From a virus: a stretch of 10,294 nucleotides of DNA. Where the stretch lies: UHGV virus genome UHGV-1838671; one strand, written 5' to 3'. The notes below the pieces were generated by a model that did no database searches, was not told where the DNA came from, and saw nothing but the letters and a program-made list of their open reading frames with translations. The position numbers and the translations under genes were made by a program. Below, piece by piece: positions 5,524 to 6,108 of this stretch (positions within the stretch are counted from its first letter, which is position 1; each line of letters starts with the position of its first letter).

Positions 5524-6108
5524 TTATTGTTTATTTTTTTCGTTCTGGTTGATGACAAATTCAATGTAACTTTCGATCTTTGCTTTCTCGGTTTCGGGTA
5601 ACAATGCGTAGCGCGAGCGGTCATAGTTGATGGTCGCAGGGTCGTGCGGGTGAATCAGTAATTCATAGCCGTGACGCCCGAATGCGGATGCAACATTCTC
5701 CAGGGTGGAAATGGAAACGCTGACTTCATTGTTTAACAGGCGGCTGATTGTCACCTGGGCGACGCCGGATGCGCGGTGAAGTTTTCCTTGTGTTGAAAGG
5801 TCGCGGCTTTCGCTCATCCAGCGTTCCAGGTTGTGAGCCGCCAGCTGACCAATGTCGCTTGGTCCGACAGGCTGAAAACCCTCCTGAGAAAGCGAGCGAT
5901 CGATATCAAGCCAGTTACGTGGTTTATTGGCGGCAGCTTCAATTTTTCGCGCAACCTGGTCGCCGATAACCTTCTTGCCAAGAGCCCAGCGGTTTACCAG
6001 ATTTGCCTGAGTTCCAAGTTTTTCTGCCATCCGCGTCTGAACACCATTGAATTCACGGTCGATCAAGTCGTTGAGATTTTGCCTGCGGACGTCCTGGATA
6101 CTTTTCAT
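5524..6108 (-). CDS. cI-like prophage repressor with two tandem XRE-type HTH domains and no S24 peptidase domain
   Basis: 194-aa ORF transcribed divergently from the Cro-like gene. HTH-like segments at residues about 8-58 (VQTRMAEKLGTQANLVNRWALGKKVIGDQVARKIE) and about 93-150 (ASGVAQVTISRLLNNEVSVSISTLENVASAFG). No Ala-Gly cleavage dipeptide and no GDSM-type Ser/Lys dyad motif visible. Confidence 0.75.
   Translation of the reverse strand: MKSIQDVRRQNLNDLIDREFNGVQTRMAEKLGTQANLVNRWALGKKVIGDQVARKIEAAANKPRNWLDIDRSLSQEGFQPVGPSDIGQLAAHNLERWMSESRDLSTQGKLHRASGVAQVTISRLLNNEVSVSISTLENVASAFGRHGYELLIHPHDPATINYDRSRYALLPETEKAKIESYIEFVINQNEKNKQ

Follow-up and report, generated by a model that had tools for sequence, protein, structure and literature searches.

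An Escherichia coli prophage repressor of the SPC32H Rep type, probably relieved by a LexA-controlled antirepressor and not by self-cleavage

The immunity repressor CI of phage lambda is encoded divergently from cro, carries an N-terminal helix-turn-helix (HTH) and acts at several operators, and the gene treated here, rep, occupies the same role and place. It is the open reading frame (ORF) at positions 5524-6108 of a 10,294-nucleotide stretch of the UHGV virus genome UHGV-1838671 (the window). The closest described system is Rep/Ant of the Salmonella phage SPC32H (PDB 5D50, 5D4Z; Kim & Ryu 2013 J Virol; Kim et al. 2016 PNAS). As recounted in papers that cite this work, SPC32H Rep consists of an N-terminal DNA-binding domain (NDD), a middle dimerisation domain (MDD) and a C-terminal CAD/TetDloop, the last of which serves for tetramerisation as well as for Ant binding (PMC9986798, citing Kim et al. 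2016). The account in PMC9638917 has Rep binding DNA as a tetramer, with DNA-binding pairs drawn from different dimers, until tetrameric Ant binds two Rep dimers and breaks the Rep tetramer (tetramer, domain layout and disassembly by Ant are recounted in PMC9638917 and PMC9986798). Ant is made after LexA self-cleavage and inhibits the repressor by protein-protein interaction, according to the summary in PMC7380047 (citing Kim & Ryu 2013). The 5524-6108 ORF is very probably the immunity repressor of a phiV10/epsilon15-like E. coli prophage, switched off by a LexA-controlled antirepressor without self-cleavage. Rep/Ant is an already known kind of system, because such a system has been described, an orthologue has been crystallised and an identical protein has been studied.

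The rep ORF runs from 6108 to 5524 on the minus strand and encodes 194 amino acids plus a stop. Homology was assessed via phmmer against all PDB chains, in which Rep residues 1-190 aligned with residues 2-197 of 5d50_A "Repressor" (199 amino acids, E=4e-42) and residues 89-190 with 5d4z_A, which is the Rep(92-198) construct (E=4e-20). With a family profile as the query, the true homologue was retrieved from the PDB at E=3e-107, and otherwise only small HTH proteins were returned. The SPC32H gene is SPC32H_041 of KC911856 in the phage collection. Rep is 100% identical to the repressors of phiV10 (gp40), vB_EcoP_ZX5 (ORF21), PAS61, phiv142-3 and others, and identity falls to 78% for Enterobacter phage Tyrion, 45% for Klebsiella Uetakeviruses and ~42-43% for epsilon15 and SPC32H. 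The gene is flanked by the early-left and early-right operons and is transcribed divergently from a cro-like gene. Overexpression of the identical ZX5 protein, ORF21, reduced free phage to zero, blocking lytic growth, and lowered endolysin and holin transcripts by 99.97-99.99% (PMC9782041). Because of its position divergent from cro and because the identical ZX5 protein blocks lytic growth, we regard rep as the immunity repressor gene, which was also the role proposed in the initial annotation, made from the sequence alone.

Up to position 10039, the window matches E. coli ECE170 at 100% identity; it represents the left end of an intact Uetakevirus prophage (39.8 kb) located at the guaA 3' end. 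In the ECE170 record, L003 (from whose coordinates 1435 is subtracted to give those of the window), copies of the att core ATTGAGTGGGAATGATT at 1421 and 41226 bound the 39.8-kb prophage, with both rep and ant inside. The attP reported for phiV10, epsilon15 and ZX5 agrees with this guaA att core (PMC9782041). The rep region is carried by 541 of 5426 complete E. coli genomes, or ~10%.

The gene and its modules are given below; domain boundaries are approximate, as they come from the 5D4Z construct alignment and conservation.
5524..6108, minus strand: rep, immunity repressor coding sequence, SPC32H Rep orthologue (ORF call, phmmer and 100% identity to the phiV10, ZX5 and PAS61 repressors)
5893..6108, minus strand: NDD, N-terminal HTH DNA-binding domain, Rep residues ~1-72, boundary approximate (weak YdaS/HTH_3 matches, PHROGs, 53% identity to the SPC32H NDD)
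5644..5838, minus strand: MDD equivalent, second HTH_3-like module, Rep residues ~91-155, boundary approximate (HTH_3 at 26 bits, 5d4z_A alignment)
5527..5643, minus strand: CAD equivalent, putatively for tetramerisation and Ant binding, Rep residues ~156-194, boundary approximate (49% identity to SPC32H)

Two stretches of Rep were matched by Pfam HTH_3 (E=1.2e-9, 38.5 bits, the best at residues 106-147), and an HTH-like YdaS/Cro-type Pfam family matched residues 21-61. These are the two HTH segments that the initial annotation had recognised; a third conserved module, at ~residues 156-190 and 3' of the second HTH, had been overlooked. Scanned alone, the C-terminal half scores above the thresholds of Pfam (HTH_3 26.0 bits vs 23; HTH_26 24.8 vs 22), and the N-terminal half remains below them (YdaS_toxin 19.9 vs 30; HTH_3 15.5 vs 23). 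The N-terminal half (residues 1-76) does match repressor PHROGs (phrog_5736, 2.8e-11; phrog_12107, 4.1e-10) as well as the N-terminal DNA-binding domain of the solved SPC32H homologue. Identity to SPC32H Rep is 53% in the NDD, 32% in the MDD and 49% in the CAD, which makes the MDD the least conserved domain and the NDD and CAD the most conserved when E. coli and Salmonella phages are compared. Fourteen CAD residues are invariant (I160, Y162, D163, Y167, L170, P171, E174, K175, K177, I178, I182, F184, Q188 and N189).

Unlike lambda CI and LexA, Rep lacks a Peptidase_S24 domain, an Ala-Gly site and a Ser/Lys dyad, and on each of these the initial annotation was borne out. Peptidase_S24 gave no match to Rep at E<=1 in Pfam or NCBIfam, the family-profile search of the PDB returned no S24 C-terminal domain, and the dipeptides AG, CG and GG are absent from the 194 residues. 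The hhalign probability for the Rep family alignment (four members) against E. coli LexA was 0.13%. The S24 autocleaving repressor class was rejected on the missing S24 domain, the missing Ala-Gly or Cys-Gly and this probability. For SPC32H Rep, Kim and Ryu (2013) reportedly found that the protein stays uncleaved during SOS. By analogy, inactivation of the E. coli protein would be reversible sequestration instead of the cleavage undergone by lambda CI and LexA.

A search of the rest of the prophage for a LexA-box-controlled antirepressor, as proposed in the initial annotation, led to a small gene outside the window. This gene, ant, is located at L003 35879-36136 on the minus strand, ~28 kb from rep and 24 kb past the window end within the same prophage, and encodes 85 amino acids (WP_001188252.1, annotated "hypothetical protein"). 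Ant aligns with 5D50 chain E ("Anti-repressor protein") with E=4e-47, shares 86-88% identity with its SPC32H counterpart and has no match to any Pfam family; its gene is divergent from the tailspike gene, the same arrangement as in SPC32H. A predicted LexA box, AACTGTATAAATATACAGTA, lies 22 bp upstream of the ant ATG and matches the consensus at 18 of 20 positions. It is the sole site of at least 15/20 within the 46-kb locus and is kept in SPC32H, Tyrion and a Klebsiella phage (17/20 in the last, with ATGT for CTGT). A single base change in the LexA box of the ant promoter, in its CTGT motif, reportedly makes the sister phage SPC32N constitutively lytic (Kim and Ryu 2013). No 20-mer within the window reaches at least 14/20 of the LexA consensus, and SOS control therefore acts not directly at rep, PR or PL. 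Rep and Ant co-occur in 35 of the 36 phage records that hold a full-length Rep homologue. A microcin that damages DNA induced prophages of the phiV10 species of Uetakevirus 21- to 47-fold (bioRxiv 10.64898/2026.05.26.727859), which is independent support for the SOS inducibility of phiV10-type prophages. The suggestion that induction depends on an antirepressor and not on self-cleavage thus appears essentially right, judged by the absent S24 apparatus and by analogy with the SPC32H-type Ant encoded in the same prophage; it had been treated as open, although the SPC32H system was already described.

Between E. coli and Salmonella phages, Ant is 84-88% identical vs 42% for Rep. That Ant is far better conserved than Rep hints that related prophages may cross-induce, or that the immunity region may be exchanged in mosaic fashion, and raises the possibility that co-resident Uetakevirus prophages cross-induce each other.

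The DNA around rep is rich in candidate binding sites. Five perfect TTACC-N5-GGTAA palindromes are present in the window vs 0.007 expected from shuffles, in addition to three one-mismatch sites, and the prophage contains ten perfect copies, nearly all of which are intergenic and beside gene starts. SPC32H, Tyrion and Klebsiella phage BUCT711 contain 9-10 perfect sites each at equivalent positions, with the central 5 bp differing. The sites and associated features in the window are as follows.
5390..5404, no strand assigned: predicted operator OL1, TTACCGTTGAGGTAA, perfect palindrome, adjoining or overlapping the -10 of the leftward early promoter (kept in four genomes)
5452..5466, no strand assigned: predicted operator OL2, TTACCCATAAGGTAA, 62 bp from OL1, upstream of the -35 (62-bp spacing kept in SPC32H, Tyrion and the Klebsiella phage)
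5484..5503, minus strand: intrinsic-terminator-like hairpin directly after rep (8-bp stem with 6 GC pairs, then a T-run)
6164..6178, no strand assigned: predicted operator OR-a, TTACCCAACAGGTAA, in the rep/cro intergenic region
6181..6195, no strand assigned: predicted operator OR-b, GCACCTCATAGGTAA, 2 mismatches, 17 bp from OR-a (position conserved)
6212..6226, no strand assigned: predicted operator OR-c, TTACCTTATGGGTGA, 1 mismatch, in the rightward promoter spacer (after an invariant TTGATT at 6202-6207)
6263..6493, plus strand: cro-like gene that opens the rightward early operon and is transcribed divergently from rep (match at E=5.6e-13 to phrog_35, "transcriptional repressor")
6549..6563, no strand assigned: operator-like site GTACCTCAAAGGTAA, 1 mismatch, downstream of a terminator-like hairpin at 6515-6534 (counterpart in Tyrion)
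8495..8509, no strand assigned: predicted operator TTACCTTCGAGGTAA, first of a 62-bp pair upstream of the ORF at 8575-8919
8557..8571, no strand assigned: predicted operator TTACCTAAGGGGTAA, second of that pair
136..150, no strand assigned: operator-like site TTACCTTAAAGGTAT, 1 mismatch, 50 bp upstream of int

OL1 and OL2 flank a leftward early promoter-like site with a -35 TTGACA at 5432-5427 and a -10 at 5409-5404. In SPC32H and the Klebsiella phage, the counterpart of OR-b matches TTACC-N5-GGTAA without mismatch, and the cro-like gene is syntenic in SPC32H, Tyrion and the Klebsiella phage. The 23-mer around TTACCTTAAAGGTAT is identical in SPC32H and has one spacer base changed in Tyrion; this site could reflect Rep control of int, or be Int/Xis-related. 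Taken across the genome, the operators suggest direct Rep repression of many promoters and not a lambda-like antitermination cascade. No published description of TTACC-N5-GGTAA operators was found in the literature searched. The epsilon15 genome paper reportedly gives a similar consensus, ATTACC...GGTAAT. At gathering thresholds, an Rfam scan of the window returned no match.

Perfect and near-perfect operators in L003 are located at 1571, 6825, 6887, 7599, 7647, 7984, 9930, 9992, 13642, 16853, 33959, 35000, 35093 and 36213, and are found upstream of int, terS, the portal operon, a YafO-toxin-like gene, a BRO-N gene and ant/tailspike. Four genomes, each from a different host genus, have two loci apiece with an operator pair spaced 62 bp centre to centre (63 bp once): 5390/5452 and 8495/8557 in the window, 33604/33666 and 35972/36034 in L004, 4210/4272 and 7124/7187 in L005, and 34195/34257 and 37265/37327 in L006. 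As 62 bp corresponds to approximately six helical turns, the spacing would allow a single Rep tetramer to span both palindromes of a pair, the promoter lying in between.

The site between ant and the tailspike gene (L003 36213-36227) carries 1 mismatch and is situated ~40 bp from the LexA box. It is perfect in SPC32H, Tyrion and the Klebsiella phage, and an invariant TGCTGGATAG motif lies between it and the LexA box. Going by these sites, both LexA and Rep may act on the control region of ant/tailspike.

Modelled on the SPC32H orthologue, a Rep tetramer would bind the symmetric TTACC-N5-GGTAA operators, which are predicted to overlap the divergent early promoters that flank rep, as well as promoters elsewhere in the genome. 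Following DNA damage, cleavage of LexA would derepress ant, and Ant would bind the C-terminal domains of Rep, which without an S24 domain would itself stay uncleaved, and free it from the DNA to permit lytic growth. Several points weigh against this reading. The AlphaFold2 single-sequence model of Rep has a mean pLDDT of 45 and a pTM of 0.22, too low to bear on the C-terminal fold, and Rep is only 42% identical to the characterised SPC32H protein (32% in the MDD). The SPC32H mechanism was taken from citing papers (PMC7380047, PMC9638917, PMC9986798 and bioRxiv 2025.11.27.690993) and from abstracts, and the pairing of E. coli Rep with the small Ant would follow from homology and from the orthologue. 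Moreover, in the only E. coli study, that of ZX5, the "anti-repressor" under test was another protein, one that carries a BRO-N domain.

A BRO-N protein is also encoded in this prophage, outside the window at L003 34047-34733 on the minus strand, and is 82% identical to the ZX5 "anti-repressor", ORF4. Over residues 147-223 it shows homology to the small Ant in its entirety (40% identity and E=8e-16 to the Ant of its own prophage), and its C-terminal domain matches 5D50 chain E at E=1.1e-13. On sequence grounds, the prophage encodes two Ant-domain proteins. Overexpression of the ZX5 orthologue lowered lysogen titres ~1000-fold (PMC9782041), a phenotype for which the Ant-homologous C-terminus offers a structural rationale; in the ZX5 paper, neither the Ant domain of the fusion under test nor the small Ant was recognised. 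The long leader of this BRO-N::Ant gene scores above the Rfam gathering scores for C4 (79.5 bits; 45) and isrK (56.7 bits; 50), and reaches 26.9 bits with the c4 a1/b1 target model, below the gathering score of 46.7.
L003 34782-34868, 34887-34963 and 34924-34976, minus strand: RNA-model matches in the BRO-N::Ant leader (C4, isrK, weak a1/b1; Rfam)
The leader looks like a P1 immI-like RNA-gated antirepressor module. Its C4 and isrK matches recall P1/P7 immI (c4 antisense RNA - icd - ant) and Gifsy-1 IsrK. Points of difference are the sub-threshold a1/b1 score and the downstream protein, a fusion of BRO-N with an SPC32H-type Ant. Two predicted Rep operators are located upstream, at L003 35000 and 35093, and no LexA box was found in the promoter region. 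This layout suggests that BRO-N::Ant is a second antirepressor input, Rep-repressed and RNA-gated.

It is conceivable that induction proceeds mainly by BRO-N::Ant gated by a C4/IsrK-type RNA, with the small LexA-controlled Ant as an accessory, as might be argued from the Ant-homologous domain, the ZX5 overexpression phenotype and the RNA matches above the gathering scores. We find this unlikely, since a promoter with Rep operators and without a LexA box should stay silent until Rep has already been inactivated. Further, a search for Ant in phiV10, SPC32H and epsilon15 gave one Ant-like place each, so these phages appear to lack the fusion, while they keep the small Ant and its LexA box. Induction through the LexA-controlled small Ant remains the preferred reading. 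More tentative, and somewhat doubtful as a whole, is an arrangement in which Rep would be the hub for two Ant-fold antirepressors, the LexA-controlled Ant and the RNA-gated BRO-N::Ant, and would also directly silence approximately ten promoters, its tetramer bridging the 62-bp pairs. If this were true, BRO-N::Ant could provide positive feedback or a second-signal input to induction. Such dual-antirepressor, RNA-gated logic is not described in the accessible literature, and the second Ant-domain protein with its RNA-gated leader is the only part of the system that might merit experiment.

The initial annotation also held that a two-domain DNA binder would fit the paired half-sites, that is, that both HTH modules of one Rep chain contact DNA and each reads one half-site. 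The second module does exceed the HTH_3 and HTH_26 cut-offs of Pfam, and the two modules align in register, weakly, with an hhalign E of 0.021 and a probability of 2% (not significant as an internal duplication). The TTACC/GGTAA inverted repeats are, however, perfectly symmetric and therefore fit two copies of one domain. Across four genera, neither the half-site nor NLVNRW, the putative recognition helix of the NDD, shows any change, whereas the helix at the corresponding place in the second module does (VAQVTISRLL vs IGPATVNRIM). For the solved orthologue, the citing accounts assign DNA binding to the N-terminal HTH and dimerisation to the middle domain (PMC9986798, PMC9638917). A tandem binder is accordingly quite improbable, and this part of the annotation was not supported.

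A cut in Rep at a non-canonical site, by RecA-stimulated or other proteolysis and without a recognisable S24 domain, is very improbable: nothing in the sequence speaks for it, there is no S24 match, no AG or CG and a 0.13% hhalign probability vs LexA, the orthologue reportedly stays intact during SOS, and a complete antirepressor module is present in the prophage. That the ORF is instead an XRE-type antitoxin (HigA/VapI-like), as the PP488543 annotation "plasmid maintenance system antidote protein VapI" and a weak HigA match (TIGR02607, E=0.0012, 18.7 bits vs a cut-off of 47.7) might imply, is scarcely credible for a gene that adjoins no toxin gene but a terminator with the early-left operon and a cro-like gene, that sits in the classical cI position with flanking operators, and whose product has a full-length homologue in the solved Rep and functional data from ZX5. 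Annotations of the pair are generic elsewhere: RefSeq E. coli genomes list Rep as "helix-turn-helix domain-containing protein", PP488543 lists it as the VapI antidote, and the small Ant is a "hypothetical protein" in all E. coli phage records listed.

All testable defining features of SPC32H Rep/Ant were found at this locus, and none of those that define the S24 autocleavers. The two systems share the genus Uetakevirus, the gene position, the three-module Rep, an Ant with 86-88% identity, the placement of ant divergent from the tailspike gene, the LexA box and the TTACC-N5-GGTAA half-sites. They differ in that Rep is 42% identical, that the host here is E. coli, and that this prophage adds BRO-N::Ant with a C4/IsrK leader, which the Ant search did not find in SPC32H. 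There is no difference at the protein level from phiV10 gp40 or ZX5 ORF21; the phiV10 and ZX5 records and the ZX5 paper leave the repressor unlinked to an SPC32H-type small Ant, which is annotated "hypothetical protein", and SPC32H is mentioned 0 times in the ZX5 paper.

The same logic, a non-cleavable repressor with a LexA-controlled antirepressor, is described for Gifsy-1/-3, Fels-2 and coliphage 186 (Tum) (PMC7380047). The protein families of these phages appear unrelated to Rep/Ant, and Ant has no Pfam match. In the abstract by Kim and Ryu, Ant is reportedly structurally distinct from the antirepressors of Sipho- and Myoviridae. Rco/Rap of the Bacillus plasmid pLS20 (TetDloop) shares with Rep/Ant an N-terminal HTH DNA-binding domain, a C-terminal p53-like tetramerisation domain and a partner protein that lifts repression (PMC9986798). 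Rco has no HTH-like dimerisation domain in the middle, and belongs to another type of mobile element with another anti-repressor family.

The discovery value is small, as the non-cleavable, antirepressor-controlled Rep of epsilon15-like podoviruses was characterised genetically in 2013 and structurally in 2016; the new increment is that the E. coli repressor is newly tied to an SPC32H-type Ant. Its practical value is one of annotation, namely joining Rep with Ant in E. coli prophages. This link predicts that such prophages are SOS-inducible through LexA and not through cleavage of the repressor.

Two further regions of the window merit mention. The ead/Ea22-like region at 9576-10294 is mosaic, and strain 85.0412 diverges from the window after 9575. 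ECE170 matches the window in two pieces; an ungapped comparison differs from 10040 on, and the matched record range is 6 bases shorter. Tandem repeats occur at 7157-7263 (and 7268-7296), consisting of an 18-bp unit in 3.1 copies and a 24-bp unit in 2.6 copies (100% match). They lie within the DnaT-like/O-like replication initiator gene at 6860-7675, where the peptide repeats that they encode are NGNEPE and NGMLNDPK, and probably represent origin iterons like those of lambda O.

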